This document shows, in pieces, positions 3,727 through 27,753 of a DNA stretch of 64,000 bases. The notes beneath the pieces were generated by a model, which did not search any database, was not told the origin of the DNA, and worked only from the letters and a program-made list of their open reading frames with translations. Position 1 is the stretch's first letter. Each line of letters opens with the position of its first letter. Source of the stretch: a virus; the IMG/VR virus record IMGVR_UViG_3300032298_001038, positions 1 to 64,000 of that record; one strand, written 5' to 3'. A program made the position numbers and the translations under genes.

Positions 3727-4716
3727 TCAATACCGGATACGGATCGCGTCGGTATAGGCACTGTACTTGTAGTTCGACGTGACTTCGCCGTAGCAGCCCT
3801 CAAGGTTGATGCTGGCCTTCGTCGCGCGAACCCACTCCCGATAAGCCTGCCAGCGCGCTTGGCCGGCACGCTCGTAAGCGGCTTCCTTGTTCTGGTCGTC
3901 TACCTGAATACCGCCGGCGGAGTATGACAGTTGATTGCGCCTGAATTGCTCCGCCACCATAAAGAACAGGTTGGCGCAAATACCCTCCAACCAATGATAT
4001 CTAAACGGGAAGTTCTTGGTCGTAAATGTGCGGATCGGCGGCGGTATCTCATTCCAATACATCACCGGGCGGCCAATAGCCAGCGCGATCTCGGCGTCGT
4101 CGAACATCAGGTGCTCAAGCAGGTAACTCTCGCTCGGAGCCGAGTCGCGCAAATGTAGGCGAATCTCGGCGATGCTGGGCGGACCGCTATTTAACCCGCT
4201 GCGGCTGTCGAAGGCGCTGCGGTTAATAATGACGTAAAACGTGTTCGAGAATACGACGCACGGCAAACCAGCCTCTTCAGCCGGGATGTTGATCAGTGCC
4301 ATCTCGCCGTAAAAGATGCCCGGGATGCCGACCAGATTCTTGGTGAGTGCGACTTCAACTTGCCCCGTCGCGGCGGCGACGATGGTCGCGTCAACTTGAA
4401 CAACGGGAGAAGTGTTGCTGAGCGCAATTTGGTCGCGAAGGCGTAAAACGACCTTCATGGGCAATTCATCGCAGGCCGACATATCCACAGGGAGGCCGTC
4501 TTTGTCGTGCATTTGCCACTGAATCGTGGCGCACTGGCCTTGGGTGATCGAGATAGCCCGCATGCGCGTGAGCACAGGCTGGCCGTTTTGTGACGATACC
4601 GGTGCGCTAACAATACTTTGCCCGGCGCAAGAGACTGGCGTCAATACGGGCGCGGTATTGCGGTTGTCGCAGCACTGTTCGAGGGCGTGAGACGTGGGTG
4701 TGGCGATGACGGCCAT
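3727..4716 (-). CDS. Putative head-tail adaptor/neck protein with N-terminal Ig-like domain
   Basis: Position downstream of MCP; beta-rich N-half; helical C-half with LSYSAGGIQVDDQNK typical of neck proteins. Confidence 0.5.
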   Translation of the reverse strand: MAVIATPTSHALEQCCDNRNTAPVLTPVSCAGQSIVSAPVSSQNGQPVLTRMRAISITQGQCATIQWQMHDKDGLPVDMSACDELPMKVVLRLRDQIALSNTSPVVQVDATIVAAATGQVEVALTKNLVGIPGIFYGEMALINIPAEEAGLPCVVFSNTFYVIINRSAFDSRSGLNSGPPSIAEIRLHLRDSAPSESYLLEHLMFDDAEIALAIGRPVMYWNEIPPPIRTFTTKNFPFRYHWLEGICANLFFMVAEQFRRNQLSYSAGGIQVDDQNKEAAYERAGQARWQAYREWVRATKASINLEGCYGEVTSNYKYSAYTDAIRIRY

Positions 4717-5640: not shown

Positions 5641-6567
5641 TCAGACAAACGTTACCTTCGCCAAACCATTCGTGTGGCCGAACGAGCCGCCTTGCGTGTT
5701 GTACGCAAAGTACTCAAGCATGAACGCTTCACGACGGATGTACATCGTGGTCGGTTCCAGTTCGTAGTTCTTGCCGATGAACTTCGGCGAGGCGAACATG
5801 TACAGCACATCGTTCGGAACGAGGTTCCGCTTGATCGTCACGATCCAGCGGCAGTTGAGGAAGTTCGTCTCCGCCCAACCGTTCTTGATGATGTCCTGCG
5901 AGAAATCACCGCCCATCTCGTCGCGGCCGAACTTCAGCAGTTCCTTGATGGTGATGTTATTCACCAAGCAAGTCTCCACTTCGAAGTGGCTGGGCGTCGA
6001 GGGCATAACCTTCAGGGCGTCAACGATCGTCTCGCGGGTGATCCCGCCCGAGATCGTGACGTTCTGCGGCACGCCGGACAGCGCGTTGTTGGTGTCGGCA
6101 GTACCGACGGCCACGTCGAGCGCCGTGATGAACTTGGAGTCCTCTTCGGCCAGCATGTCCTTGATCATGTTGTCCGACAGAACCTGACGGATGTCGATGA
6201 CGTACGTGCGCAGTTCGTCAACGTCCTTAACAGCGCGGGGCGACACGATCCGGTCAAACATGACGCGGTAGCGCGGGCCACGGATGTAGAAGTTGATCGG
6301 AAGCGTCGCGAACGGGAGCGACACGGCCGCCGGGGAATCGGGTTCCTTGTCGACAACCTTCACCGGCTTGTCCGTGTCAACCTGACGATCGAGTTCGTCG
6401 TTGGTGATGGTCAGCGGGGGAAGAATACGACGGTAGAACCCGTCTTCACGCATCTTGGTGCGCGTGAAGTCATTAACCGCATCAATGGCCTGCTTCTGCA
6501 TGCCGGGGGTATCAAGTTGCTCAAAAAGCGTCTCGTTGAGCAGTTGAACTTCTTGCTGAGTGGGCAT
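5641..6567 (-). CDS. Major capsid protein (HK97/encapsulin-like fold)
   Basis: About 308 aa, downstream of protease, scaffold and decoration genes; HK97-like pattern (spine-helix region QVLSDNMIKDMLAEEDSKFI, C-terminal beta strands). The start is likely MPTQQ, not MEV. Confidence 0.8.
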   Translation of the reverse strand: MPTQQEVQLLNETLFEQLDTPGMQKQAIDAVNDFTRTKMREDGFYRRILPPLTITNDELDRQVDTDKPVKVVDKEPDSPAAVSLPFATLPINFYIRGPRYRVMFDRIVSPRAVKDVDELRTYVIDIRQVLSDNMIKDMLAEEDSKFITALDVAVGTADTNNALSGVPQNVTISGGITRETIVDALKVMPSTPSHFEVETCLVNNITIKELLKFGRDEMGGDFSQDIIKNGWAETNFLNCRWIVTIKRNLVPNDVLYMFASPKFIGKNYELEPTTMYIRREAFMLEYFAYNTQGGSFGHTNGLAKVTFV

Positions 6568-6571
6568 TGTA

Positions 6572-6587
6572 AAGACCTCCATGTCTT
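6572..6587 (-). promoter_or_regulatory. CsrA/RsmA-type hairpin over the MCP Shine-Dalgarno
   Basis: AAGAC-ATGGAG-GTCTT. Confidence 0.6.
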
Positions 6588-9041: not shown

Positions 9042-10502
9042 TCATGTGACATAATTTTGCAGTACACAGTGGTTTGCTGTCAACAAGTTATTCCGGTATT
9101 TTTCACTGGCGGCAGCGTAAGCAGCAATCTTATACAAAGCGTAGTGCTTCGCAAGAGCAGTTTCTGCGTTTGTGCTGGCCCGCTTTTCTGTCTGAGGTTT
9201 TACAGGTTTAACGTTACGAATTGCGGCTAAATAGGCACGTTTTTCAAGGTTATCGATTAACGTGCTGTGCGTACGTGCAACCTTTTCGGCCCAAAGCCTT
9301 ACGGAGTCTGACGCGCTATCTGCCGGATAAAACTTGTTGTTTTCCAACGAGGAAACGATGTCTTCTTCTGCCGCGAGTTTCGAAAAAACGTTTGGCAGCG
9401 CGTTTGTCACTGCCTCAACGAGTTCAACATTAGCAGATTTGACCGTAAGTGCCAAGAAATCCCTTACAGACAGGATGACTCCGGCGTCGGCTAGTCCGCG
9501 TAATACCTCCGCCATTTTAGCAAATGGACAGGCGTTTATATCAAGCGCAGGCTGTACAGACGGGTGCGCGGCGAGGGCCATCTGAGTCCAACCGTTGGGA
9601 TTGTTAACAGATTCTTGCTCGGCTTGCGCCAGTTGTTGCAGGGCGTTGAATTGCTGCGCGGCGCGCTTCGACGCCATGGCCGAATCCAGACCGTACGGCA
9701 TCGTGACGCCCAGTTGCTCGGCCAGTTCTGCGCCTGAAACCATGGTTCCCGCAGACGCCGCTTTCTCCAACCGGCCCGATACGTAAGCGATACGGTCCGC
9801 CGGGCGGAACACGTGAGAAATGTCGAAAAACGAGCACTTGATGTTGTCGGCGTGGAGGATGTGGCCGTCCTCCAACACCCGGCCCATGTGGTGTTTTAAA
9901 CCGCCGGCTTTGCAGTGCCCGCCGTTCTCAATCGAGTCGCAGTATTCGGCGCGGGTGCGGGCTTTATTGCCGCAAGACGAACAAATATCAAAAGGGATTT
10001 TGCACGCCATGGAAACCGGGATGTCCTTGCCGGAACCCAGTTTTTCCATCTCTTTGTCGGCCAGCAAACCGCCGTTACGGTCGGCGGCCTCCTTCGAGCC
10101 GTTCAGCGCGCAGATCAGTTCGATCCGCTTCATCGGCTCGTTGTAGTACGACGCCTTTACAATGCCGAAACTCTTGGCCGGATTCTTGTTGGCGTGGTCG
10201 CGGTAGAATCGTGCAAACTTTTCAAACGTGTGATGATCTTTTTTGCACGTGTCGCGGCTAAAGCCGTCGCCGTTGCGGTTCGGGCCGTAGTCTTCAGTAG
10301 CACCAATAGCGATCAGGTGCACAGGAACTTCATCTTTTGCGAATTTAATGTGCGATACCTTTTCGACAAACTCGGCTCCGGCGCGCTTTACAAACGCCTG
10401 CTTGTCGTGGCCTATGATGCCGCGATTAGATACTTTAATCAGCGCGGCGACCGGCTCGCTGAAGTCCTGCGAGTTCGGCTGAATAACTTTGATCATGCTC
10501 AT
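9042..10502 (-). CDS. Putative prohead maturation protease with Zn-finger insertion and C-terminal extension
   Basis: FYRDH and VSMAC candidate His/Ser; CKIPFDICSSCG...C...C; canonical position upstream of scaffold and MCP. Confidence 0.65.
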   Translation of the reverse strand: MSMIKVIQPNSQDFSEPVAALIKVSNRGIIGHDKQAFVKRAGAEFVEKVSHIKFAKDEVPVHLIAIGATEDYGPNRNGDGFSRDTCKKDHHTFEKFARFYRDHANKNPAKSFGIVKASYYNEPMKRIELICALNGSKEAADRNGGLLADKEMEKLGSGKDIPVSMACKIPFDICSSCGNKARTRAEYCDSIENGGHCKAGGLKHHMGRVLEDGHILHADNIKCSFFDISHVFRPADRIAYVSGRLEKAASAGTMVSGAELAEQLGVTMPYGLDSAMASKRAAQQFNALQQLAQAEQESVNNPNGWTQMALAAHPSVQPALDINACPFAKMAEVLRGLADAGVILSVRDFLALTVKSANVELVEAVTNALPNVFSKLAAEEDIVSSLENNKFYPADSASDSVRLWAEKVARTHSTLIDNLEKRAYLAAIRNVKPVKPQTEKRASTNAETALAKHYALYKIAAYAAASEKYRNNLLTANHCVLQNYVT

Positions 10503-14768: not shown

Positions 14769-15101
14769 TTACTCGGCAACAATGTAGTACACAGTTGCCG
14801 GGTCTTTAGTCGCCAGCGCGTTGTACCCGGCTTGAGTAATTTTGACGATGTTTGTAAGAACTGTCCCGCCTGTAAGTCCAGTAATGTCGCTCTCTACGTA
14901 GTTGTTATCCGCGCCGCCAACCTGCACAGCAGTTGTGTCTTCAAGACCGGCGTACAGTTTGTTTTCTTCTACGTCGTACAGTATCTCGCCCGGCTGCACG
15001 TTAATTGGCGTCGGGTCTACTTCGCTGACAACCTCGCGGCGACGGTTCGGAAAGTGAAGCGCCCGGAACACACGTGTCGGGTCTGGGGTTTCTTCAGACA
15101 T
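14769..15101 (-). CDS. Small fibre-associated protein (paralog of 13368-13595)
   Basis: Shared N-terminal motif; C-terminal KITQAGYNALATKDPATVYYI fibre-like module. Confidence 0.55.
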   Translation of the reverse strand: MSEETPDPTRVFRALHFPNRRREVVSEVDPTPINVQPGEILYDVEENKLYAGLEDTTAVQVGGADNNYVESDITGLTGGTVLTNIVKITQAGYNALATKDPATVYYIVAE

Positions 15102-15119
15102 CGTTGCACCTTGTTAAAG

Positions 15120-15539
15120 TTACCGCAGCATCGGCGTCTCAACAGTAACCGTCAGCACAAAATTTTTGCTTCCCGAGCCGTTCGGTTTAATCCACAGATA
15201 TAAAAAACGCTGCGGCACAGACGGTGTTCCGTCGCGGTTTAAGTACGCCACATTGACGTTAGTATTTTCAGCGATTGCCACAACGTCAGGGTCAACGACT
15301 ACGTCGGCGAAATCGGCGAGGCTTAACACGTGAAATGCCTCAGCCGGCAGTGACGCGTTCGGCTCTGTTTCTTGGTTGCTAGAGTACAAGTCGGCGTCGA
15401 ACTTGTCGTCGTCGCCGGTTACCTGCACAAGCGAATAGCCGCGCAAAATACCGCGGTGCGGCGCGCGCACCGGGATTACGGTTTCTTGCCCGCTAACAGC
15501 CGTGAAAGATGTCGTTCCAGACCAAATCGTACTTGCCAT
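15120..15539 (-). CDS. Hypothetical structural protein
   Basis: 139-aa beta-rich ORF in the structural operon. Confidence 0.6.
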   Translation of the reverse strand: MASTIWSGTTSFTAVSGQETVIPVRAPHRGILRGYSLVQVTGDDDKFDADLYSSNQETEPNASLPAEAFHVLSLADFADVVVDPDVVAIAENTNVNVAYLNRDGTPSVPQRFLYLWIKPNGSGSKNFVLTVTVETPMLR

Positions 15540-15550
15540 ATTTTCACCTA

Positions 15551-17953
15551 TTACGAGGCTCCAGCGGTAGCGGCGAGATCAACGTCTTGCGCTTCCTCTT
15601 CCGGATACGGTTCAATTGTCTTTTGCTTGAGGAACAGAATTACGTCGCCCAACATTTCAAACGCGTTGCGGAGCGAGTCTTCCAGTTCCGGCATGTCGGC
15701 TTTGCCGTAACGATCGGCAAACCGGTCGCCGTGCCAGTAGAACATGAACAGGATGCGGCCCAACTTGTCGAGGCCCTTGGTCAGTTCGCCCATGTACCGG
15801 TCAACGAGACCATCGTCGCGCACGGCGCGCAACATCGTGCCGATCATGGCGGTGTCGAATACCTCGCGCTGACCGCTCTGCGCCGCACCGAGCACGTGCT
15901 GGATCGACTTCTGATCCAATTGCGTGTTCGGATTGTAAACGCTGCGGTCAGTCTGGCTTGCGGACATGCCGGGAACCGGCGCGCCGACGTCGATGCCGAG
16001 TTGTGTCGGAACGCTGGTGCCCATAATGGTTTCGCCGCCCATGACCGGGCCGGGATCAGCCGGCGCGCTGGGCGCGTTGTTAATCATCATCGGGCTGCCG
16101 TACGGGTCGGCGTACTTGATGTGGCACGCAAACTTGCGGCGGGCTTTGGCGTTGGCCAGTAACGTGCGGGCTGCGTCTTCACGCAGGCCATGACGTGCAA
16201 CAAGCGACGCCAAAGCATTCTTTTCCGACAACTCTTTTTCAATGAGTTGCTTCTTCGGACTGTGAATCTCGACTGCCGTGCCGTTGTGATAAATCGTCAC
16301 GCTGCCGAGTTTCTGCATCAGCGAGAGTTGCGCGTCAGCAAGGTTGCCCGGCATCAGCGGCGGATTGGCGCTTTCGCCGCAGCCGCAAGCGTCTTGCCCG
16401 TCAGCCGTTTCGGCGTCGTCTTCGCCCGGCGCGCACTTCAACAACTTGTACCCTTCGGGCACAAAGATGTCGCCCATGCTGAAGCGAAGTTTCGAGCCTC
16501 CCTTTCCGTTCAGGTGAATGCGCACGCCGTCGCGGTACTTGTCGTAGTTCAGCGGGTCGGTGTAGCAGCAGGGAGAGATTGAACCCTTGGGCGGGAATTT
16601 GGAATGGTCTTCCATGTGGACTTCGTAAGCGTTGCCGCCAAACTCAGTCTCGCCGTATTCGCGAATAACGCGGAACGGGACAGTCGTGTCGCCGTTCTTG
16701 TGAATCGCCATGTAACGGCCGCTCTTCGACACACTGTTGGCGTCGGAAAGGCCGTTGTACCACGAATCAAACTCGTCGCCTTCAACACGGCTCAGACAGA
16801 ACACGTGGTCGGCGCGGGTGTTGATCCACTCCGGCTTGCCTTCCGTGCGGACGACGGTGACAAAGTCGCTGCGCTTGCTCGGCCCCATCGGGTAGACAGC
16901 GATATAGCACTTTTCCACGTCGCCCGGCTTGACGAGCACCATGTACAGGCCGCTTTCGGTCGGATTGAATAACTTCTTCTCGACCTGAATGTTGTAGGGG
17001 ACAGACACGTTGTCGCGGTCGCGGATGTCTTTGATCAGAATCCCGTCGCGCAGCAACTTTTCTTGGTCCTCTTCGGTGTAGCCCGGCGGGAGCGCCGTCT
17101 GCATCGTCGCGTCGTACGTGATGACCTTCAGCGTGGCCATAGCCTTGGGTTTTTCGGGCGCTTCGGACAACACGCTCGCGACCTTGTGGTTCGCGGCGGC
17201 CTCACGGGCCTTCGCCGTACCGATTGCCTCGCTAATAATATCTAAACCGTGAAACTCGTCGATCGCCTCGGCGAGGTGTGGTGCAAACTGGCAGGTTTTA
17301 ACAAGCGCGGCAATAGTCTCCATGCCGGCTTGCTTCAGAAACGCCTTGAGATTTAACTTGTGGCCCAACTCTTCAAAAGCCAATTTGGTGTTCATGGTTG
17401 CCGTCTTCGCCAGTGTCGGCAGCACGGCGGTCATCATTTCCTTGAGCGTGGGCTGCGCCGAACCGAACTTGGCCGGAGACCGTGACAACTGCGTAAAATC
17501 GGGTTGGCGCTGGCCAAACTGCGTCAGGTTCTTGTCGATACCGCTGCCGAGAATGCTGGGCTTGCGATTAATGAGGTAATTGACCCAGTTTTCCTTGAGC
17601 GGCACGAACATGTCCTGATTCTTGATATACAGGAGTTCGTGCCCCTTGAGGTCGCCGTTGAGGAAGAATACGGGCGCGTACAACCACATCGACCCAACCT
17701 TAAACGCAAAAACGCCAACAGCCTTGGTGTTTTCTCGGTTTCGGTCGAGGAGTTGGAACCCGATCTCGTGATCCATTAACTTGGGCGCGCCATCGCGGAG
17801 ATAGGCGTGAGCGAGGTTTGAAAACGCCTGCTCAAACGCCATGTCGTCGCCTCGGCCGCCGATTTCGGCAACCTTGGTCTGGGTACGGTCATAGGACCGG
17901 ACGACGTTTAACCAATGCTTCCACGATGCTTCTTTAGTCTTTTTGTTGTACAC
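15551..17953 (-). CDS. Large conserved virion/head protein with K-x-A sites
   Basis: About 800 aa; probable GTG start 8 nt after GGAGG; LAKTA, LKQA and IKYA motifs. Confidence 0.65.
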   Translation of the reverse strand: MYNKKTKEASWKHWLNVVRSYDRTQTKVAEIGGRGDDMAFEQAFSNLAHAYLRDGAPKLMDHEIGFQLLDRNRENTKAVGVFAFKVGSMWLYAPVFFLNGDLKGHELLYIKNQDMFVPLKENWVNYLINRKPSILGSGIDKNLTQFGQRQPDFTQLSRSPAKFGSAQPTLKEMMTAVLPTLAKTATMNTKLAFEELGHKLNLKAFLKQAGMETIAALVKTCQFAPHLAEAIDEFHGLDIISEAIGTAKAREAAANHKVASVLSEAPEKPKAMATLKVITYDATMQTALPPGYTEEDQEKLLRDGILIKDIRDRDNVSVPYNIQVEKKLFNPTESGLYMVLVKPGDVEKCYIAVYPMGPSKRSDFVTVVRTEGKPEWINTRADHVFCLSRVEGDEFDSWYNGLSDANSVSKSGRYMAIHKNGDTTVPFRVIREYGETEFGGNAYEVHMEDHSKFPPKGSISPCCYTDPLNYDKYRDGVRIHLNGKGGSKLRFSMGDIFVPEGYKLLKCAPGEDDAETADGQDACGCGESANPPLMPGNLADAQLSLMQKLGSVTIYHNGTAVEIHSPKKQLIEKELSEKNALASLVARHGLREDAARTLLANAKARRKFACHIKYADPYGSPMMINNAPSAPADPGPVMGGETIMGTSVPTQLGIDVGAPVPGMSASQTDRSVYNPNTQLDQKSIQHVLGAAQSGQREVFDTAMIGTMLRAVRDDGLVDRYMGELTKGLDKLGRILFMFYWHGDRFADRYGKADMPELEDSLRNAFEMLGDVILFLKQKTIEPYPEEEAQDVDLAATAGAS

Positions 17954-17957
17954 AGGC

Positions 17958-17973
17958 GCCACCTCCATGCGGC
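17958..17973 (-). promoter_or_regulatory. CsrA/RsmA-type hairpin over SD
   Basis: GCCGC-ATGGAG-GTGGC (one G-U pair). Confidence 0.55.
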
Positions 17974-18000
17974 AGACAATAAACTAACAACTCTACTAAT

Positions 18001-19941
18001 TTACAGTGTTCTTGGCTCGGAGCCTAGCGGACTTGCGGGGGTTTGAAAGGCTTTTTGGGGGTTAGATTCAGTTTTCCACCCACTTGTCGCGCCAGAAACG
18101 CCAAATTGCTCGCCCCGCGCGAGCGCAGGCACGTAACTGCTACCTTCGGTATCGCTCTTCAACCCGCGGTGAACACTGTTTAAAAATCCACGTTCTTGAT
18201 ACGACCCCAGCATACGCGTCATCCAGTCAGGATCGTTTGAAATGTTGGCCATGCCGCGCACCATCTCGGACTCGAAGGGCGGCGGCTCTTTATGGGCCTG
18301 AATATTGTTTATGCCGTACTTTTTCAAGTTGTCCGCGACGCTTTTAGTTATTTTTGTGCCGATCGAATAGTGCAAGACCGGTTCTTCCAGATAATGATTC
18401 ATAAGCGTATTCGGCGCAGATGCCACAGCGCCCGAACGCGGCTTCCACGACCGTTCCAGCATTGAATATGGAATAACGTCGTCTGGGGCGTAGTCGCCGT
18501 ATTCGTCGTTCAGCCTGACGTGGTTGATCAGCCCGCGCGCCACTAGTTCGATGTTACGCCGGTGGGCTGTGATGCCGGAATTACCAAGCACTTGCCGCAT
18601 GGCTTGCACGAAGTACTTACGCCCTTCACCGACGCCTTTGTGTTTAACAATCTCGGCGGGGTTGGGCATGCCGTCTGACAGTACGTCGCCGGCTTCCAGT
18701 GCGTCGCCTTTCTTGACGCTCACTTGTCGGTCTGCCGGGACGTAGTGATCTTCACCGTCAACGGTGACGTAAAAGCCGCCCTGCGCGGCTGGGCGAATTT
18801 CTTGCACGCGGCCTTCGCGCTGCGTGTGCGTAGCGCCGTCGGGGTAACGTCGTGGAACTTGCACAAGCGCGTTAATAGCCTTGAAGCCGCCAATCGACTT
18901 TGCCCCGCCTACGCCACCCGAGTGCTTCGACGACAACTGCGACTGCGACACCGGCTCAGACAGCGCTTGCGCAGCCGCAATGCCGACGTAATCACCAACG
19001 GGTGGCACGCGGCCCTTTTCGCGATAGCCGACGTCTTTCGCGTATACGCCGCCATCCTCCGGACCGCCGACCAGCGGACTGCGCACTAAAATATCTTTAA
19101 CGCCCATCGCCTTGATGTCTTTGAGAATTTTGGGCGTGAGTACCGTGTTGCGCTTGTACGGGCCGACAGGTCGCGCCAAAAACGACCCTTCGTTATCCGG
19201 GTCGTCAACGTCGGACGGCAGGCCGCGGTTGTGCGCCGTTACCAGCCGCGCTTCGTCATCGTCGTCATCCGCGGTGACAAGGAGGCGGTGCGCCATCTGC
19301 GTAAGTTGCTTGCCATAAAAACCGGCGTCAGCGGTGGCGGTCTTCACGTCAATCACGCCCTTACGCGTACCGAACGATGCCGCGAAGTATTCAGCCGGCG
19401 TCAAGCCGCGACTGTAACTCCGCAGCACCGGCAGCGGGATTGGGTTATCACGATGGTCGACATATTGCATGTCAGCGCCAATCAGCGAGTTCAACATAAA
19501 CTTGTTGCCCGTGGCGCCGGCCAGCACTTGGTGCGCAAGCGGGTTGTTGGCGTCGCGAGCCTCGTTAAACACGTCTTCAACAAGTTTCTGCTGCGTTTCA
19601 GCCGCAAGTTTCAGAATTTTTAACTCGCGCTCTTTGTCCGAGAGGTTAGTGTCCGCAAGAATTTGACGCAGTTCTTTGCGGACTTTGATTTGCGCGTGGC
19701 GGCTCGCAAACGTCGGCCGAATGTCTTTCAGCCCCATCGACAACCCACCCGTGGTGTACGCCACGTCGCGGGAAACATCGTGAATCTTCTTCATCACCTC
19801 GCGGTACCGGTCAGGGTATTTTTTTGCTAGATCGGTGGCCAACGCGCCCATAGCCTTCTTGTCCAACACGCGTTCGTAATCACGCATGTCGTCCGGAAGG
19901 GCTTCGTTGATCATTAACTGGCCAAGGGTAGTTTTTAACAC
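18001..19941 (-). CDS. rpoC: DNA-directed RNA polymerase beta' subunit, C-terminal half
   Basis: TTLGQL; bridge helix GLTPAEYF...RKGVIDVKTATADAGF; trigger loop GIAAAQALSEPVSQ...KHSGG; no Cys. Confidence 0.92.
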   Translation of the reverse strand: MLKTTLGQLMINEALPDDMRDYERVLDKKAMGALATDLAKKYPDRYREVMKKIHDVSRDVAYTTGGLSMGLKDIRPTFASRHAQIKVRKELRQILADTNLSDKERELKILKLAAETQQKLVEDVFNEARDANNPLAHQVLAGATGNKFMLNSLIGADMQYVDHRDNPIPLPVLRSYSRGLTPAEYFAASFGTRKGVIDVKTATADAGFYGKQLTQMAHRLLVTADDDDDEARLVTAHNRGLPSDVDDPDNEGSFLARPVGPYKRNTVLTPKILKDIKAMGVKDILVRSPLVGGPEDGGVYAKDVGYREKGRVPPVGDYVGIAAAQALSEPVSQSQLSSKHSGGVGGAKSIGGFKAINALVQVPRRYPDGATHTQREGRVQEIRPAAQGGFYVTVDGEDHYVPADRQVSVKKGDALEAGDVLSDGMPNPAEIVKHKGVGEGRKYFVQAMRQVLGNSGITAHRRNIELVARGLINHVRLNDEYGDYAPDDVIPYSMLERSWKPRSGAVASAPNTLMNHYLEEPVLHYSIGTKITKSVADNLKKYGINNIQAHKEPPPFESEMVRGMANISNDPDWMTRMLGSYQERGFLNSVHRGLKSDTEGSSYVPALARGEQFGVSGATSGWKTESNPQKAFQTPASPLGSEPRTL

Positions 19942-19947
19942 GGCAAG

Positions 19948-20163
19948 TCATTTCGGCGGAACAAGTTCTCGTACGGTCGGCGCGTTGTTGAGGCCGACCA
20001 TGTTGAGTACGGTTTTGAAATCACTATCCCCAACTGCCGAGTACAAAATGCCGTCTACAAGGTGCGTAGCGACAAAAATTGGATTACCCAAATCGTCTTC
20101 GATCACGACGCTATGGGCTTTTTGGTCGGCAGGAATTAAGTTGTGCTGCGTTTTAACGAGCAT
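19948..20163 (-). CDS. Small hypothetical protein between RNAP genes
   Basis: 71 aa, coupled to neighbours. Confidence 0.55.
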   Translation of the reverse strand: MLVKTQHNLIPADQKAHSVVIEDDLGNPIFVATHLVDGILYSAVGDSDFKTVLNMVGLNNAPTVRELVPPK

Positions 20164-20896
20164 TGTCCGTCAAACTCCGGTGCAACGCTTTCGCTGCGCT
20201 GACTTTTGCTTGAAGATCAATGTTCAAAATCTCAGCGGCAACGGGCTGACCAACACGCGAAACAGCGTGCTGCTCGACGCGCTCCCACCAGTTCGCCTGC
20301 TTGCCAGCAGCAGCCGGATCAGCCGGCGGCGCGCCGGGAGGCAGCGGACCTCCGGGAGGCAGCGGGCCGCCCGGCGCTTGAGGACCGCCTGCCGGGGCCG
20401 GAGGCGGCGCCATCGGACCACCGGGGAGCGCGGTTTCGGCCGGCGGGGCGCCGGTTGTGCCGGGAGGAAGTACAAGCGACTCAGGCGCAACCTGCACGCC
20501 CATCGCGTTCATGATCGCGGTGAGTTGCTGCTGCATGTTGTACAGCCGGTAGTCAAGCATCTGCATCATTTGTTCTGGCTTTAACTTCTGACCAGCACCG
20601 GCGCCGGCAGGACCGGCGGCTTGCGGAGTAGCCGGCGGAAGCGCGCCAAGCATCGACGGGTCCATCATGCCCGGAGGAGCGGCAGCCGGAGGAGCGCCAC
20701 CACCCGCGGCGGCGGCAGCCTGCGCCGGATCAACGGGCTGTTGCGCGCCAAGCGCGTCAGGAGTCATGGGAGGCATGCCGACCTGCTGGGACTGATCAGC
20801 GCCCATTTGGCCGCCCTGCGGCGGCACAACCGCCGACTTTTCAAATACCCGGCGGCTCGCAAGCGCCAGCAGTTCCGGATTTACCGTGTAGGACAT
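20153..20896 (-). CDS. Pro/Ala/Gln-rich Cys-free protein with K-x-A sites
   Basis: FEKSA and GKQA flank a low-complexity core; start MSYTV. Confidence 0.65.
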   Translation of the reverse strand: MSYTVNPELLALASRRVFEKSAVVPPQGGQMGADQSQQVGMPPMTPDALGAQQPVDPAQAAAAAGGGAPPAAAPPGMMDPSMLGALPPATPQAAGPAGAGAGQKLKPEQMMQMLDYRLYNMQQQLTAIMNAMGVQVAPESLVLPPGTTGAPPAETALPGGPMAPPPAPAGGPQAPGGPLPPGGPLPPGAPPADPAAAGKQANWWERVEQHAVSRVGQPVAAEILNIDLQAKVSAAKALHRSLTDNAR

Positions 20897-20897
20897 A

Positions 20898-20913
20898 TTT
20901 ACCTCCATGTAAA
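20898..20913 (-). promoter_or_regulatory. CsrA/RsmA-type hairpin over SD
   Basis: TTTAC-ATGGAG-GTAAA. Confidence 0.6.
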
Positions 20914-20916
20914 CAA

Positions 20917-23900
20917 TCAGGCCTTATCTTCCACAATGTGTACCGGCGTGTCCACGTCGATATCGCCCCGTCGGTAGGCGGCGAGGGCGTCTTTTTTCGT
21001 GCGGTAAACGCGCGGCTTAGATTTGTTGTTAACCTTGCTTGAGGCTAAGTATACACCAGTCTGGTAGTCTTTGTTTGGTACATAATGGGCTTTGAAGTTA
21101 GACGCTGCGAAAAGGTTTTTGCTGGGCAGCATCTTTTCGACGGCTTCCTTGGCGGCTTCTTCGGTGCTGGGCACGTGGTACTGCATCGCGTCGCCGTCGA
21201 AATCGGCCCCGAAGCCTTTTGTGATAACCGGGTTTACTTCCATGACCTTGTTTTTTGTTAACCGCGGATAAAACGCCATAACGCCGTACCGGTGTAGAAC
21301 GGGCGCGCGGTTAATGACGATGGGCTTCGCGTTCATTTGCGTGTTTAATTCGGCAAACGCTTCTTTGTTGCGCTCTTCGACTGCCCGCATCGCGTTCATT
21401 CGCGGCATGCCGCGCCTGATCAGCCCGCGGACGACAAACGGCTTGTAAATGTCCCACGCTTTGTCTTCTGGCAGGGCTACCTCGTCCATGTCGAGGTCCG
21501 GGTTGGGCGAGATTACGGCCCGGCCGACAAGGTCCACAGTGCTCGACAGCAGTTTGCGCTGCATCGTGCCAAACTTCGGACTGTCACCAAATATCTTTGA
21601 CAAGAAACCGCGCACGTTCCGTTCGACGTTCTTCGGGTGTTGCGGATCGCCAAGGCCGGACACCGCCTTCATCGAGTCGTATAACGACAACCGCTCGCCG
21701 CCGACGTCGGAAAGCAGGCCAGAGGCTTCCTTCAGCACGTTGTTCGACTCAAGCAGTTCTTTGTACAGATAGTTAGCGTCGTCGATAAGTTGCATCTTCT
21801 TCGCGCCCATCGTCGAGACTGGGCGGAACGCTGGCGGCAGCACGCCGACCTTGGTTTGCATCCAGTCTTTCGGATGGACGCCAGTGGCTTCTGCGCCCTT
21901 CAAAAACGCGAGCCGGCGCACGGCCGCGTCGCGCAACGTCTTGCGACCAGATTTGATGTCTGCGCGCGCTTGCTCGATTGCGCGCGGAAGGTTCACAGAC
22001 TTTAACGCTTCGTGAATCGCTGTTGGTCCGGTCTTGTTGCCCAACTTCTCTTGACCGGCGAGCACGGCGCGGAACTTCTTTTCGGTCAAGCCTAGCGTTC
22101 GCCGAATCGGCTCTTCCATGATCGGGTTCGGCATCGGCTCGTGTAATGTTATTTTTGACCAACGATTGCCGTTGTGACCGCCAGTCAGCGTCTCGTCGAA
22201 CAGCCCGCCTTTAACCGGCTTCAGGTTGCCCTTCCAGTCGACGGTCTCGGCGTTCTGAATCTCGCGATCGCCGGCTAACTCTTCGACGTTCTTGTCAGTC
22301 AACGCCATGATGTGCGTCTTCGAGCCGGTGCGCACAGCGTTTACGCCAGCGCCGCGAAGTTGATTGACAAACTTCTCGTACACGTGCGGCACCTTCGGCA
22401 GCGGCGGGTCATACCCGGCCATGAACTGCGTCCAGTATTCGGGGTTGGCTTGGCCGCGTACCATCTTGGCGTCGCGCACAACCTTGCCGGCGCCGTGAGA
22501 CAAAAGCGCGCCCAGTTCCAGCATGCCGACGCGCTTAGCGCCTTCGCTGCCGCCCTTGGCGGGCGTGCCTTCAGCCGTATACCCGCCGATCGACCGCCCC
22601 TGACCTTTAGACTCAGCCGTGTGGTGCAGTTTCATAAAGAAACGGTTGCCGGTCAGCACGCCACGAATCTTGCGGCCAGTTTCTGGGTCAATCAGGTCTT
22701 CAGTGTCTGTCAGCCCGTGCTTGGCCAACTCCGCGGCGGCCATCTCGACCAGATCGTTATCGTTATCGAAGTCTTTGATCTTGAACGGCTGGCCAGTCTT
22801 TTCAGAAACTTTGCCCAACGCGGCTTCGATGATCTGCGCAGGGTTTACGCGATTAATTAAGCCGAGCGGGCTGACAAGAATTTCGAGCGGCCGGCCTTGC
22901 CCGTCTTGCGGCATCTGATTGTCAGGAACAATCTCCGACACAACGCCCTTGTCGCCGAAGCGGCCGGTAATCTTGTCGCCGACCTCCATCTGCGACTTCG
23001 ACTTCACGACGACGGACACGCCCTTCTTGGTGTGCTCCACGTCAGTCACGACGCCCGGCGAGTGATGCTCCCACGTCATCGTCTCGTTCGCGAACGCGCC
23101 CGCCCGGCCGCGGTGTACTTTGCCGTAAACCTGATCGCGCTTCTTGGCGACGAGCACCAGCGGGTCGCCAAAATTGACGATCGTGCCTTTTTTGATTGCG
23201 CCGTTATCGTCAAAGTTCTCCAGCATCTTTTTGTCGTACTCGCTGGGAAACAAACTGACGAAAGCCTTCTTGCCGACGTGGGTGTTGTCATCCCACTCGG
23301 CTTCGTGCTGATACATGTGCTGGCTGGTGAGTTTCTTGGCAGCCGATTCAGATATCACAACGGCGTCTTCGTAGTTGCGCCCGCGGAACGGCGTATAGCC
23401 CACGCGCAAATTTAAACCCAGCGCAGCCGCGCCGCCTTTATCAGTAAAGTTACTGGTAGCGATCAGTTGGCCGGGCTTCACGACATCGCCGGGCTTTACC
23501 GTCGGCGTCTGCGTCCAGAACGTCTTCCGATTGAACGGCATGTCGTTGTATAAGTCGATCGTGTGCTTCTGGCCGTCCTTGTCGCGAATGATCATCTCGT
23601 CTGGCGTGACTGCGACAACTTGCCCGCCGACTTGGGATTTAATTGCGCCTAACTTTTCGCCCATCTCGTCTTCGTGCGAAACGCTTCCGTCACCGTCGAA
23701 CTTGGCGGATTGCACGAACGGCGACTCAGCGTTTTCGAGCGGGAGCGCCTGCGTAAACATACGGCTACCCATGATGACGCGCTGGCCTTTTACCATGCTT
23801 TTCATCGGCACCATGTTGGTCAGCGACGAAAACGTGTTGTCCATGTTCGGAACGGTGTACTGCGCGTCTTTGCGCGGCACGTACTTAATCTTGCCGTTTA

Positions 23901-25347
23901 CAAGCGCCGCGACCATCGGCAGGTCCGACTTGTCCTCGCCCGGGAACATGAGCGGCATGTCCGCCAGTTCTTGCGGCGTCTTGTACTCCGTCTCGCCGGT
24001 GTTGGCGTTCTTGACGGGCACCACAAACGTGTGCAGGTTGTTGCCCAACTTGCGCGCCCCGGCAGCGAAGCGCATGTCTACGCCCACCTTGCCAGACTCC
24101 GGCGTGCGGAGATAGTCGATAAAGCCGAAGTGGCTGGGCTGCACGCTGCGCGACTCCGCCGGCACGGCGTCCAGCGAGCCGATGCCGCCTTCGCCGAGCC
24201 GGGTCACGCGCGTCTGGTGGTCAAAAATTTCAGCCGGGTTGATTTCTTCGAGGCTCGACCCCAATCCCGAGCCAATGAGCGCCGCGGTGATCGACTTGTT
24301 AAAGATGCCGCTGGGGATGTGGTCCAGCGTCTTCTTCGCGGTGGCTTTCCAGAGCAACTGCCGCAGGGCCGACTTGTCTTTCACGAACCGTTCCGATATC
24401 AAATCTTCCGGGCCAAAGACTTGCTGGAACGTCATGCTATCGCGGTCGTCGCTTTCGGCTTCCTTGCGATTGACCGCGATAAGTTTTTTGGTGATGTCCA
24501 GAATGGCGTCTGGCGTCAGATTCTTGTACGGCGTGCCCAACGTGCGCTTCGTAACCTCTTCGTCCAACTCCGTCTTGGCAAACTCCGCGGCGATAGCCTT
24601 GATCTTGGCTAACTGGTCCGCTGCCGGGTCTGGCTTAAATACGAGCCGGCTGTAAAGTTTATCCAGCGTGCCGGCGTCGCCTTTCTGCATGTTTACGGCG
24701 GCGATCTCGTTGCCCCACGCTTCCCGTATCTGCTTTTCTTGCACGCCGAGTGTCTTCAGCAGCGGCATGAGCGGAATCTTAGCCTGCCCGATCTGGATTT
24801 GAAACTCGCCGGTTTTGGGGTCCATGTAATAACGGTGCGAGCGGCCTTTGCCGGGCAGCGTGTTAACGTGCGATTCCAGTTCGCCGTTATCTTTCTCGCG
24901 CGTGAACACGCCCGGCCTGAGTCGCAGTTGATGTGCCAGCGTGTATTCGACACCTTTGTTTACAAACGTACCTGAGTCGGTCAGATATGGCACATTTGCT
25001 ATCGTAGCCTGTCGCGAAGCGACAGGCTTTTCCGAGCCATTTTCTATTAAAGTCCACGTGCCCGTTAACTTTCGGGCAAGTGTGCCGCGAGTTAATACAG
25101 CCTTCTTTTGATCTTTACGCGAATAGCGCTCAGGCCCCGCGTAACCCACGTTCGTGAGTTTAAGGGTGTAAAGATCGTTCTGGATCGGCTCAATGCCTGA
25201 CGCAGAACGCAGCGCCTCGTTAAAGATGTTATCGCGCAGGGCGTTAATATCGCCGAATGCGCGGGTCTGTTGCTGCGGAGGAGCAAGAGGCGGAAGAGCC
25301 GGAACTGTCTGCGGTTTCAGCGGCGGCAAGGGGTCGGACATGGTCAC
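20917..25347 (-). CDS. rpoB-rpoC: RNA polymerase beta subunit fused to beta' N-terminal half (catalytic DFDGD)
   Basis: beta motifs GTFVNKG, RTPESGKVG, GDKITGRFGDKG, KLHH...KRVGMLE, followed by beta' motifs KGGLFD, VLPPAFRP, NRAPVLHR, GADFDGDAM; no Cys. Confidence 0.95.
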   Translation of the reverse strand: MTMSDPLPPLKPQTVPALPPLAPPQQQTRAFGDINALRDNIFNEALRSASGIEPIQNDLYTLKLTNVGYAGPERYSRKDQKKAVLTRGTLARKLTGTWTLIENGSEKPVASRQATIANVPYLTDSGTFVNKGVEYTLAHQLRLRPGVFTREKDNGELESHVNTLPGKGRSHRYYMDPKTGEFQIQIGQAKIPLMPLLKTLGVQEKQIREAWGNEIAAVNMQKGDAGTLDKLYSRLVFKPDPAADQLAKIKAIAAEFAKTELDEEVTKRTLGTPYKNLTPDAILDITKKLIAVNRKEAESDDRDSMTFQQVFGPEDLISERFVKDKSALRQLLWKATAKKTLDHIPSGIFNKSITAALIGSGLGSSLEEINPAEIFDHQTRVTRLGEGGIGSLDAVPAESRSVQPSHFGFIDYLRTPESGKVGVDMRFAAGARKLGNNLHTFVVPVKNANTGETEYKTPQELADMPLMFPGEDKSDLPMVAALVNGKIKYVPRKDAQYTVPNMDNTFSSLTNMVPMKSMVKGQRVIMGSRMFTQALPLENAESPFVQSAKFDGDGSVSHEDEMGEKLGAIKSQVGGQVVAVTPDEMIIRDKDGQKHTIDLYNDMPFNRKTFWTQTPTVKPGDVVKPGQLIATSNFTDKGGAAALGLNLRVGYTPFRGRNYEDAVVISESAAKKLTSQHMYQHEAEWDDNTHVGKKAFVSLFPSEYDKKMLENFDDNGAIKKGTIVNFGDPLVLVAKKRDQVYGKVHRGRAGAFANETMTWEHHSPGVVTDVEHTKKGVSVVVKSKSQMEVGDKITGRFGDKGVVSEIVPDNQMPQDGQGRPLEILVSPLGLINRVNPAQIIEAALGKVSEKTGQPFKIKDFDNDNDLVEMAAAELAKHGLTDTEDLIDPETGRKIRGVLTGNRFFMKLHHTAESKGQGRSIGGYTAEGTPAKGGSEGAKRVGMLELGALLSHGAGKVVRDAKMVRGQANPEYWTQFMAGYDPPLPKVPHVYEKFVNQLRGAGVNAVRTGSKTHIMALTDKNVEELAGDREIQNAETVDWKGNLKPVKGGLFDETLTGGHNGNRWSKITLHEPMPNPIMEEPIRRTLGLTEKKFRAVLAGQEKLGNKTGPTAIHEALKSVNLPRAIEQARADIKSGRKTLRDAAVRRLAFLKGAEATGVHPKDWMQTKVGVLPPAFRPVSTMGAKKMQLIDDANYLYKELLESNNVLKEASGLLSDVGGERLSLYDSMKAVSGLGDPQHPKNVERNVRGFLSKIFGDSPKFGTMQRKLLSSTVDLVGRAVISPNPDLDMDEVALPEDKAWDIYKPFVVRGLIRRGMPRMNAMRAVEERNKEAFAELNTQMNAKPIVINRAPVLHRYGVMAFYPRLTKNKVMEVNPVITKGFGADFDGDAMQYHVPSTEEAAKEAVEKMLPSKNLFAASNFKAHYVPNKDYQTGVYLASSKVNNKSKPRVYRTKKDALAAYRRGDIDVDTPVHIVEDKA

Positions 25348-26372
25348 ACCCCTTGGTCGTCATGCGGTTCTTTCGTGGCAGCCACGTCTTTGACCTGCGC
25401 TAATTCCTGCGGATCAATCCAGACTGGCATTGTGTCTTTCATGCGATCCTTGGCCGCCAGAGCCTTGGCCAGATTCTTCGCTGAGGACGCGGCCATGGTC
25501 TTGTCATACATGTATTTGCCGCCGATCAGGCCGCCGCCGAGCGTCGCGCCAGCGGCTGCCACGCCGTACATGTTGGGCAAGTCGTGAAAAATGGACTTAA
25601 GGATAGGCAAACGAGACGGATCAACGTAGCGGAGATAATCCGACCAGTCGGCTTTCTTTTCGGTATACACGTCATAGGCTTGATCGAGCATGTCGGTAAC
25701 CGAGGACTTCTTCTCTTTTTTGCTATCTTTGTCGTCGTCCTTCAGCAACTCATCAAAATACTGCCGGCGAGCGGACTCAACGTTGTCATATTGTTCTTTT
25801 TTCTTCTCGGCTTCGGCGTACGGCTCAGCGGCCATATCGTAAAGCGTCTTTCCGCCCAGCACGCCGAGACCAGCGCCGCCAGCGTTCATCATCGCGTTCC
25901 AGCCGGTATATCCAGAACCGCGATTAAAAAGCGGCTTACCTAAGATCGGCTCCAAAAACGGGAGATACGAGCGCGGCGTGTTCTTGCCCAAAAACTCGTG
26001 AACAGGCTTGGTGTTTAAACCCGCGCCCACGCCAGCACCTGCAAGCCCGCCCAGCAACGCATTCCGCTTCTTCGTCTTCTCGTCCGACAACGCAGACGCC
26101 AAGATCGCACCAGCCGCGCCGCCAACAGCCGGCGCCGCAACCGTATACGCGTCAAAAGCCAATTTCTTTTGCTCAGGAGCCGGCAGTAATTCAGGCGTAT
26201 CAAGCGCGACGTCATTGTAGTCGGGCGTTACGGGCTTGCTGCGCGCCAACTGATCTTCAAAGCGCTTCCGCAGTTTCTTGGCCAAGTAGTACAGCCCGGT
26301 GGCCGAAGCCCCGACGCCGGTGCCTAACAGGACATTGTTAAAGATTTCTTTGCCGTCTTCTGCGTAGCCCAT
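25344..26372 (-). CDS. Gly-zipper virion protein (Cys-free, K-x-A sites)
   Basis: Several GxxxG hydrophobic helices; KKLA, KKSS and EKKA. Confidence 0.65.
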   Translation of the reverse strand: MGYAEDGKEIFNNVLLGTGVGASATGLYYLAKKLRKRFEDQLARSKPVTPDYNDVALDTPELLPAPEQKKLAFDAYTVAAPAVGGAAGAILASALSDEKTKKRNALLGGLAGAGVGAGLNTKPVHEFLGKNTPRSYLPFLEPILGKPLFNRGSGYTGWNAMMNAGGAGLGVLGGKTLYDMAAEPYAEAEKKKEQYDNVESARRQYFDELLKDDDKDSKKEKKSSVTDMLDQAYDVYTEKKADWSDYLRYVDPSRLPILKSIFHDLPNMYGVAAAGATLGGGLIGGKYMYDKTMAASSAKNLAKALAAKDRMKDTMPVWIDPQELAQVKDVAATKEPHDDQGV

Positions 26373-26384
26373 AGTCGCCTGCCG

Positions 26385-26732
26385 TTATTTGGGCGGAATC
26401 ATGCCGTAAACTTGGCACCACTCCAGCCAGACTCTGTAATGTTTGTGTTCTTCGTCCCAGTGATCGGAACGTTTTTGCGCCATATACCAGCCGTTGACCA
26501 TTTTATCATTGATGTCGTCAAATTCGGCCTTTTGCTGCTCATCCCACAATTCGAACATCCTAGACTTGAAGTCGAGCCGGAAATCAATGTTTTCCAGTTC
26601 GCCGTCTTTTAAGTTTGGGGCAGTTCCGGGCGGCGCAATGACAGGAAAACCTTCAGGTGTTCCCGGCCAATACAACCGATGATTCCCGTGCTGACCCCCG
26701 GCTACCTCTTGAAAATACTTCCTTGTACTCAC
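26385..26732 (-). CDS. Hypothetical protein
   Basis: 115-aa ORF in operon. Confidence 0.65.
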   Translation of the reverse strand: MSTRKYFQEVAGGQHGNHRLYWPGTPEGFPVIAPPGTAPNLKDGELENIDFRLDFKSRMFELWDEQQKAEFDDINDKMVNGWYMAQKRSDHWDEEHKHYRVWLEWCQVYGMIPPK

Positions 26733-26744
26733 AGGAGCCTTTCG

Positions 26745-27251
26745 TTAGCGCGAGGTTTCACGAGCCTGCCGATACTTCTTGTAGGCTTTCTGGGCCTTGA
26801 GTCGATCAGAGTAGACCTTGTATGTATCCGATAATTCTTTTGATTTAATCTCGTCTTCGTCAATCGGTTCTTCGTCTAACTTGGCTTTGCCGTAACCGAG
26901 CGCGGCGCCACCCAGAAGGCCCGCTGCTCCGCCAATGCCAATACCAGCAAGGCCGAGGTCTTTAGCCGCTGAAAGGCCGCCGTTAAGCAAGAAAGGACTA
27001 GCAAGAATGCCCGCGGTGCCTACGGTCTTTGTTGCGGCGCCTGTGCGGGCAGCAATTGGCGCAAGGCGGGCGGCGAGGGCCGGGGCAAAACGCGCTAACA
27101 ATCCAGTGCCTGTGCCGCCGAGAAATGTGGGAAGAAGTGCGCTTTTTTCAAACGCTTCCTTCACCTGTTCGGGTTCAAGGCCCATTTCAAAGCATCGGGC
27201 GGCGAAACCCATCTTGAAGGCCGTCTTTTCGTCAATGCTATCAAAATCCAT
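26745..27251 (-). CDS. Gly-zipper virion protein
   Basis: EKTA and EKSA in the leader; GLAGIGIGGAAGLLGGAALG helix. Confidence 0.65.
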   Translation of the reverse strand: MDFDSIDEKTAFKMGFAARCFEMGLEPEQVKEAFEKSALLPTFLGGTGTGLLARFAPALAARLAPIAARTGAATKTVGTAGILASPFLLNGGLSAAKDLGLAGIGIGGAAGLLGGAALGYGKAKLDEEPIDEDEIKSKELSDTYKVYSDRLKAQKAYKKYRQARETSR

Positions 27252-27252
27252 G

Positions 27253-27753
27253 TCACTCTCCCGGCAGAATTAACTTTTTGGGGGTATTCGGCGTAGCCCC
27301 CATTGTAAAGTCTGGAGCGACGTATTTTCCAGTATCTCGGCCTAAAGGAAGCGCGCCGGGAAGTGAAGTCGTAAAATTAGCCCCCGACGCCAACGAAATC
27401 CGGCTCTTGCGGTTCGGGCGGTGCTTCATGAACCACGCATCGACTTCCGGGTCCGAGCGGTCGCCTTGCTCCTTAGCCTCGTTCGTGCAGGCAATCATTT
27501 CTTCAATAGCGCGAATCAGGTCAGAGCGGTCAGCAGACAACCACGACGCCTTAGACGGGTTTTCGGCGGCGACGTGGCGCAGACGGGCGGCTTCGTCGGA
27601 AAGGGCCTGTGCACGCAGCAGGAATTCTTTACGAGTCAGGACGTAGAACTCGCCCGTGTCCTCGTCGTGCAAACAGACAAATCCGTTTTCCGCGTAAAAC
27701 TTGAGGCCGCGGAACCTGTAGCACTTCCCTGTGACTTTTTTCAGATCGGGCAT
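27253..27753 (-). CDS. Hypothetical protein
   Basis: 166-aa ORF abutting the next gene. Confidence 0.65.
   Translation of the reverse strand: MPDLKKVTGKCYRFRGLKFYAENGFVCLHDEDTGEFYVLTRKEFLLRAQALSDEAARLRHVAAENPSKASWLSADRSDLIRAIEEMIACTNEAKEQGDRSDPEVDAWFMKHRPNRKSRISLASGANFTTSLPGALPLGRDTGKYVAPDFTMGATPNTPKKLILPGE

Follow-up and report, generated by a model that had tools for sequence, protein, structure and literature searches.

In the 64,000-nucleotide stretch analysed here (hereafter, the window), which is the first part of the complete, 198,312 bp genome of an uncultured phage, with direct terminal repeats, recorded in IMG/VR as IMGVR_UViG_3300032298_001038, four consecutive genes on the minus strand include those for the two chains of a bacterial-type multisubunit RNA polymerase (RNAP). 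The first gene in the direction of transcription (20917..25347) codes for P0001, a 1476 amino acid (aa) protein in which the beta subunit is fused to the N-terminal half of beta-prime. The last one (18001..19941) codes for P0002, a protein of 646 aa corresponding to the C-terminal half of beta-prime. Between them lie the genes for P0003 (20153..20908; 251 aa, or 247 aa from M5, the likely start) and P0004 (19948..20163; 71 aa). The spacing is operon-like, with a gap of 8 nucleotides (nt) between P0001 and P0003, an overlap of 11 nt between P0003 and P0004 and a gap of 6 nt between P0004 and P0002. A preliminary description of this sequence had given the right coordinates for these open reading frames (ORFs) and the right size for P0004, but about 248 aa for P0003, where the ORF has 251 aa and the probable protein 247 aa. 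P0001 was identified by its Pfam domains, by alignment with RNAP chains in the PDB and by a match to gp206 of Salmonella phage Arash; P0002 by Pfam family Rpb1_5, by alignment with Streptomyces beta-prime and by a match to Arash gp216.

The Pfam domains of P0001 follow in the order Rpb2_3 (residues 366-428), Rpb2_6 (577-924), Rpb1_1 (1151-1208) and Rpb1_2 (to 1404), with 169 bits for Rpb2_6 (PF00562; cut-off 23.4) and 85 bits for PF00623, and the reading frame is uninterrupted. The beta portion (residues 1-1015 and nt 22303..25347 on the minus strand, the boundary being approximate) is full-length, includes the double-psi barrel and is colinear with the beta chains in the PDB: alignments start at residue 77-108 and end at about residue 1003, with E-values down to 3.5e-67, residues 77-1001 pairing for instance with 65-1051 of the 1100-aa Synechococcus beta. 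The beta-prime N-half (approximately residues 1020-1476; 20920..22290, minus strand) carries the N-terminal motif, the clamp helices and the catalytic barrel. It contains the equivalent of E. coli beta-prime 159-544, and the C-terminus of P0001 falls at about E. coli residue 555. Matches with B. subtilis beta-prime cover residues 1029-1056 (27-53 in B. subtilis) and 1079-1471 (142-539); the beta-prime zinc-binding domain (B. subtilis 53-142) is missing, with about 23 cysteine-free residues in its place. Lineage-specific insertions are missing as well.

At the junction, the beta C-terminal AGVNAV passes directly into the MALTD...ETV...GGLFD of the beta-prime N-terminus, and 22 relatives with 40-50% identity, when aligned (alignment A1), keep this continuity. 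Since one motif continues directly into the other and this is conserved, there is essentially no linker. The arrangement proposed in the preliminary description, with beta fused to the beta-prime N-half and a separate C-half, is borne out by the Pfam order and the PDB alignments, and the motifs quoted in its favour (KRVGMLE, GGLFD and ADFDGD) are all present in the first chain; the "short linker", on the contrary, was if anything an overstatement, the beta motif running straight into that of beta-prime. The same description held both chains to be much shorter than cellular subunits, which is right as far as the missing insertions and zinc-binding domain are concerned, but not for the total: with about 1015 aa of beta and about 456 + 646 = 1100 aa of beta-prime, the enzyme is near in size to the smallest bacterial ones.

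The catalytic Mg-binding motif ADFDGD (residues 1381-1386; 21190..21207, minus strand) reads GADFDGD when the preceding residue is included (21190-21210), and not the canonical NADFDGD. In cellular RNAP the Asn of this motif touches the substrate ribose. D1382, D1384, G1385 and D1386 are invariant in alignment A1. Across the clade of relatives described below, the position of the canonical Asn reads GA in 129/203 proteins and NA in 37/203. Gly, Asn, Ala, Ser and Thr all occur at this position in the clade, and F, Y, N, H or A between the first two Asp residues.

P0002 matches Rpb1_5 (PF04998) with 79 bits, and its residues 2-497 align with 659-1166 of Streptomyces beta-prime. The chain contains the secondary-channel rim, the bridge helix, an insertion-free trigger loop and region H, whose C-terminal motif, judged by eye, comes after the aligned part. 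The bridge-helix and trigger-loop sequences are recognisable and, as originally claimed, the ORF begins at TTLG and carries both elements, in agreement with the PDB alignments. In the numbering of several bacterial beta-prime chains, P0002 starts within about 5-26 residues of the end of P0001. Judging from the sequence, all the catalytic elements (beta barrel, DxDGD, bridge helix and trigger loop) are kept across the two chains.

The layout is real, widespread and not unique to this genome. A tblastn search of 50,697 phage records retrieved both chains in Salmonella phage Arash and in Vibrio phages D69, D148 and D181. A first scan of IMG/VR gave 34 loci (L004-L037) with a fusion 73-95% identical to P0001, and the four-gene cassette was found in every one of these that extends far enough downstream; a profile-based scan of the same database then brought the number of stretches with the layout to at least 563, the longest contig being of about 235 kb. 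Each of the top 120 relatives from a search of 5.8 billion proteins has PF00562 and PF00623 in one protein. Likewise, the best 150 in an exhaustive search of 1.84 billion cluster representatives (50% identity) are all of the fused type, at 43-59% identity; those free of inteins match across the junction in a single stretch and the rest keep the conserved C-terminus of the beta-prime N-half. The beta-prime C-half was found within the fusion protein in none of about 270 retrieved relatives, which end within about 10 residues of a common C-terminal point. Where found in the IMG/VR loci, the C-half gene is on the same strand, 0.86-5.9 kb downstream; otherwise it is more than 7 kb off. In a scan of GTDB (185,579 species genomes), the fusion occurred solely on contigs of metagenome-assembled genomes that resemble binned phage, so that no reliable host can be derived from them. 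The recurrence of the layout, the shared end point and the lack of a C-half in the fusion proteins of the relatives indicate that fusion and cut are old, fixed characters of a large phage clade, which is common in freshwater metagenomes.

The preliminary description would have been less novel had the same architecture been typical of a described clade. It is indeed the norm in a very large clade, of more than 150 clusters at 50% identity and with cultured phages included, but it was not found described in the papers searched: a beta::beta-prime-N fusion with a separate C-half is mentioned neither in the paper on mReC phages (see below) nor in two jumbo-phage papers of 2020-2021, in a jumbo-phage review of 2026 or in what full-text literature searches returned. 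PHROG families 24349 and 25354 (1191 and 1216 aa) were considered as unsplit phage relatives and rejected as probable host contamination, because they have the lengths of Firmicutes RpoB and RpoC and because the full-length "phage" records that match them are unannotated contigs with host-like rpoB-rpoC. Partial tblastn matches, to parts of beta or beta-prime, were obtained for ten Rhizobium phage records, Cobetia phage Carin-5, Yersinia phage YerA41, Vibrio phage Va2 and E. coli phage IME392.

The fusion gene is also an intein hotspot, with relatives of up to 3350 aa and up to six matched stretches. L024:9228-10269 (and likewise L033, L059 and L082) carries, within a conserved beta motif, an in-frame insertion of about 331 aa; it starts with Cys after RTPE, ends with GN before Ser and has a LAGLIDADG-like block. 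Many relatives (P0064, P0128 and P0151 among the intein-bearing proteins) have an insertion at or beside DFDGD. In Vibrio phages D181 and D148, the fusion gene is broken by about 0.9 kb with an annotated homing endonuclease, which may be an intron or a free-standing homing-endonuclease insertion, and is annotated as four hypothetical pieces.

The closest known enzymes are those of Arash and of the Vibrio phages, among which the present one is, on protein similarity, a distant member. Arash gp206 (1525 aa; OQ632216.1) aligns with 97% of P0001 at 32% identity, and gp216 (606 aa) with 94% of P0002 at 25% identity, each in a single alignment. Arash and D69 have the two-chain layout with the same fusion and cut points as here, and D148 and D181 show paired matches as in D69 with the homing-endonuclease insertion in between. 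The phages differ in what lies between the two halves: nine unrelated genes in Arash, some of them on the opposite strand, and in D69 two small genes with no hidden Markov model (HMM) match to P0003 or P0004. Shared with Arash are also homologues of the sigma factor gp10 and of the SNF2 helicase gp217, the portal, the capsid protein, the terminase and several structural proteins. A 789-aa protein encoded at 47950-50319 on the minus strand contains the gp217 homologue as its C-terminal, SNF2-type helicase portion, with 35% identity over 454 aa; in Arash the gp217 gene comes directly after that for the beta-prime C-half, whereas here the gene is about 25 kb distant and has extra N-terminal modules.

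The relatedness with Arash extends to gene order, the fusion, the beta-prime C-half, a gp222-like structural protein (9042-10502), the major capsid protein (gp226 homologue; 5641-6582) and a gp233-like structural protein (3727-4716) following one another co-directionally in both genomes; the last three, on the minus strand here, were assigned by homology with Arash. By mass spectrometry of Arash virions, gp206 was the top protein, with 3516 spectra and 100% coverage, and gp216 (1210 spectra), sigma gp10 (467) and helicase gp217 (1148) were also detected (PMC10585845). In that paper the two chains are labelled plainly as beta and beta-prime, and the fusion is not mentioned (PMC10585845).

As to the rest of the transcription kit, PF00562 is matched once in the present genome, and once also in every one of five near-complete relatives. 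Profiles for alpha (PF01000, PF01193) and omega (PF01192) had no match at E <= 0.1 in the complete 198-kb genome, while 14/14 control genomes were positive; the phage enzyme may use the alpha and omega subunits of the host. A sigma-70-family gene lies outside the window, at genome positions 178077-178883 on the minus strand (L116:1459-2265). Its 268-aa product matches Sigma70_r3 above the cut-off (36.8 bits) and region 4 near the threshold (22.6 bits) and is homologous to Arash gp10 (BLASTP E = 9e-21), and the gene is found in one copy in each of 5/5 relatives. The second Arash sigma, gp196 (C-terminal part only), has no homologue in this genome.

Taking these data together, we consider it likely that the four genes form an operon for the only RNAP of the phage, a bacterial-type double-barrel enzyme made of two chains. 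The C-terminus of beta and the N-terminus of beta-prime are neighbours in bacterial RNAP, as known from Helicobacter and from engineered E. coli fusions, and a covalent tether between them would stand in for the alpha dimer as assembly platform. The cut would be placed in a permissive inter-domain region, one that is also split in cyanobacteria, in plastids and in phiKZ/AR9-type RNAPs. The enzyme would be directed to phage promoters by the phage sigma; its synthesis would be late, at the same time as that of the head proteins, and it would then be packaged in the capsid and delivered along with the DNA, so as to begin early transcription. The two small proteins would be clade-specific partners, acting for example in assembly, packaging or regulation, and not part of the core. 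On balance we favour packaging in the virion and injection, by analogy with Arash, because of the proteome of its virions and of the conserved synteny with head genes. A stricter version is put forward only tentatively, as it probably claims too much: a minimal self-sufficient machine of two catalytic chains and their own sigma, working with neither alpha nor omega, packed in the capsid and injected, for which P0003 and P0004 would be dedicated assembly or packaging partners in the freshwater phages.

Several points weigh against this explanation. Activity, complex formation and transcription are predictions for the whole clade. The absence of alpha and omega is judged from Pfam profiles, which would overlook a very divergent substitute or one lacking homology; P0003 or P0004 might be such a substitute. 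The association of sigma with the RNAP is suggested by co-occurrence and homology, and Pfam detected no sigma region 2 in the genome. For packaging, the argument passes through a relative that is just 25-32% identical; moreover, the RNAP genes are about 65 kb from the portal gene here but adjacent to it in Arash, and the authors of the Arash study interpreted the virion signal either as a role in early infection or as carry-over of abundant infection-phase proteins into the preparations (PMC10585845).

Among the alternatives, the one that survives best, although we regard it as rather doubtful, is that P0003 and P0004 are stoichiometric RNAP subunits that functionally replace alpha or omega, and not head proteins or partners with a looser link. 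Neither protein has a Pfam family, and P0003 has no PHROG family either. HMMs built from positional orthologues were searched in the IMG/VR loci and in the Arash and D69 loci. The P0003 model matched in 89/111 related loci, lying between the two RNAP genes in those inspected, and the P0004 model matched once per locus in 89 loci, always downstream of the fusion gene. The tight and partly overlapping placement of these single-copy genes between the RNAP genes is what a subunit would lead one to expect, and so is the persistence of P0004, which is detected down to relatives with RNAP 41-45% identical, in some loci directly upstream of the C-half gene despite other inserted genes. P0004 also folds confidently: its AlphaFold2 model has a predicted local distance difference test score (pLDDT) of 92.7 and is a small beta-rich fold of five strands and one helix. 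However, fold searches matched it neither to omega or any RNAP subunit nor to any other solved structure (Foldseek E > 0.6; VIA-align Z <= 2.5). P0003 consists of a conserved N-terminal helix, a long disordered stretch rich in Pro, Gly, Ala, Met and Asp, a conserved central helix and a C-terminal helix, and is predicted as mostly disordered by ESM Atlas, which offered no lead on either protein. Both small genes evolve much faster than the RNAP chains, with 45-60% identity against 73-77%. Their HMMs had zero matches in the Arash and D69 loci: since these encode the same two-chain enzyme, P0003 and P0004 must lie outside the core of this type of RNAP and are clade-specific partners at most. They are conserved, single-copy, RNAP-linked genes of the freshwater clade, for which an accessory role is conceivable.

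It is unlikely, though still worth weighing, that the enzyme is made during infection to transcribe middle and late genes, as a non-virion RNAP, early genes being transcribed by the host RNAP, perhaps with the phage sigma, and the virion signal in Arash being the carry-over raised by its authors (PMC10585845). Consistent with this are the one RNAP set per genome, against the separate virion set of phiKZ-type phages, and the possibility, realised in many large phages, that a sigma-70-family protein works with the core RNAP of the host (PMC7598289). Against it, gp206 was the most detected protein of the Arash virion, with three further transcription-related proteins (gp216, sigma gp10 and helicase gp217) alongside, and in both phages the RNAP genes are co-directional with, and embedded among, head genes.

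Improbable is also that the mature enzyme is not made of two chains, either because a head protease cuts the junction or because the beta-prime halves are trans-spliced. Phage head proteases do process many packaged proteins, and the inteins so common in this gene family could speak for trans-splicing. But the junction is direct and conserved, with no linker or recognisable cleavage motif, and P0002 takes up the beta-prime sequence within about 5-26 residues of where P0001 stops; as no residues are spare, there is no room for split-intein halves, and the rejoining of the beta-prime halves by a split intein was rejected. Finally, a fusion created by misassembly, a frameshift or wrong gene calling, or a pseudogene, has a negligible probability: the frame is uninterrupted, the junction, whose sequence is conserved across the clade, is seen again in hundreds of assemblies made independently as well as in the finished genomes of phages in culture, and Arash gp206 has 100% peptide coverage; this recurrence disposes of the assembly error that the preliminary description had named as its possible undoing.

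Helicobacter and the cyanobacteria, which the preliminary description had chosen for comparison, are apt models, sharing the same junction and the same inter-domain region, respectively. In Helicobacter and relatives rpoB and rpoC are fused, and engineered beta to beta-prime tethers are active in E. coli. As here, the C-terminus of beta is joined directly to the N-terminus of beta-prime, but the Helicobacter-type fusion includes the whole of beta-prime and still uses alpha2 and omega, whereas in our phage beta-prime is cut and alpha and omega homologues were not found. In cyanobacteria and plastids (rpoC1 gamma and rpoC2) the beta-prime cut, past the double-psi barrel, falls within the inter-domain region used here too. 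The cyanobacterial cut is an estimated 10-60 residues downstream of that of the phage in PDB chain numbering, the end of P0001 corresponding to about residue 563 of the 626 of gamma, and RpoC2 residue 51 aligning with P0002 residue 63. Unlike the free cyanobacterial gamma, the phage N-half is fused to beta.

Among phage enzymes, those of phiKZ/AR9-type are likewise phage-encoded double-barrel RNAPs without alpha or omega, with one set in the virion. Their beta-prime is split just past the catalytic barrel (PMC7598289), and the PHROG families for the beta-prime N-half stop near the end of P0001. They have beta in two or three unfused pieces, come in two paralogous sets and lack a sigma-70 homologue (PMC7598289, PMC7824862). 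Here, on the contrary, beta is whole and fused, the set is single and a sigma-70-family gene is found. The sequence is also much nearer to cellular RNAP: PDB beta chains are matched with E of about 1e-67, whereas among the PHROG families annotated as phage RNAP subunits the best one reaches 7e-28. Cellular-like beta and beta-prime are instead known from mReC phages, environmental tailed phages, many of them lake-derived (Weinheimer and Aylward 2020, PMC7481178). Their beta (about 1145 aa) and beta-prime (about 1415 aa) are encoded by separate genes, tens of genes apart, and no fusion is described (PMC7481178). Their published gene layout differs from the one seen here; besides, the mReC filter NADxDGD would leave out the GADFDGD of this window.

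Cellular RNAPs require the alpha dimer to unite beta and beta-prime, while phiKZ-type enzymes are, to our knowledge, alpha-less and with no recognisable sigma. The enzyme described here would represent a third solution, combining a covalent tether, a conserved post-barrel cut and a recognisable sigma-70-family partner. If active as two chains and sigma, it would be the smallest sigma-dependent multisubunit RNAP, and could reveal what alpha, omega and the zinc-binding domain are needed for. Were the minimal packaged machine outlined above to hold, it would be the simplest sigma-dependent multisubunit RNAP known, and tractable through phage Arash; as this phage, cultured on a laboratory Salmonella strain, has the layout, the biochemistry is directly testable. 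The present analysis contributes that P0003 and P0004 are a conserved pair, that the cut point does not vary and that, in this branch, sigma co-occurs; and since the clade is large and common, pipelines that label the first chain "beta subunit" miss a recurrent feature.

Around the operon little else was recognised. When 10 flanking ORFs were compared with Pfam and PHROG, and 10 more with PHROG, almost nothing came up, the matches being a NUDIX domain, a protease and one weak glycine-zipper. A scan of 15000-27500 for sigma-70 promoters and terminators found nothing above chance expectation. The sole plausible terminator in this interval, a 7-bp GC-rich stem followed by a T-run at 15454-15472 on the minus strand, is located just past an 805-aa ORF, the one that follows the gene for P0002, and could be where the operon ends.

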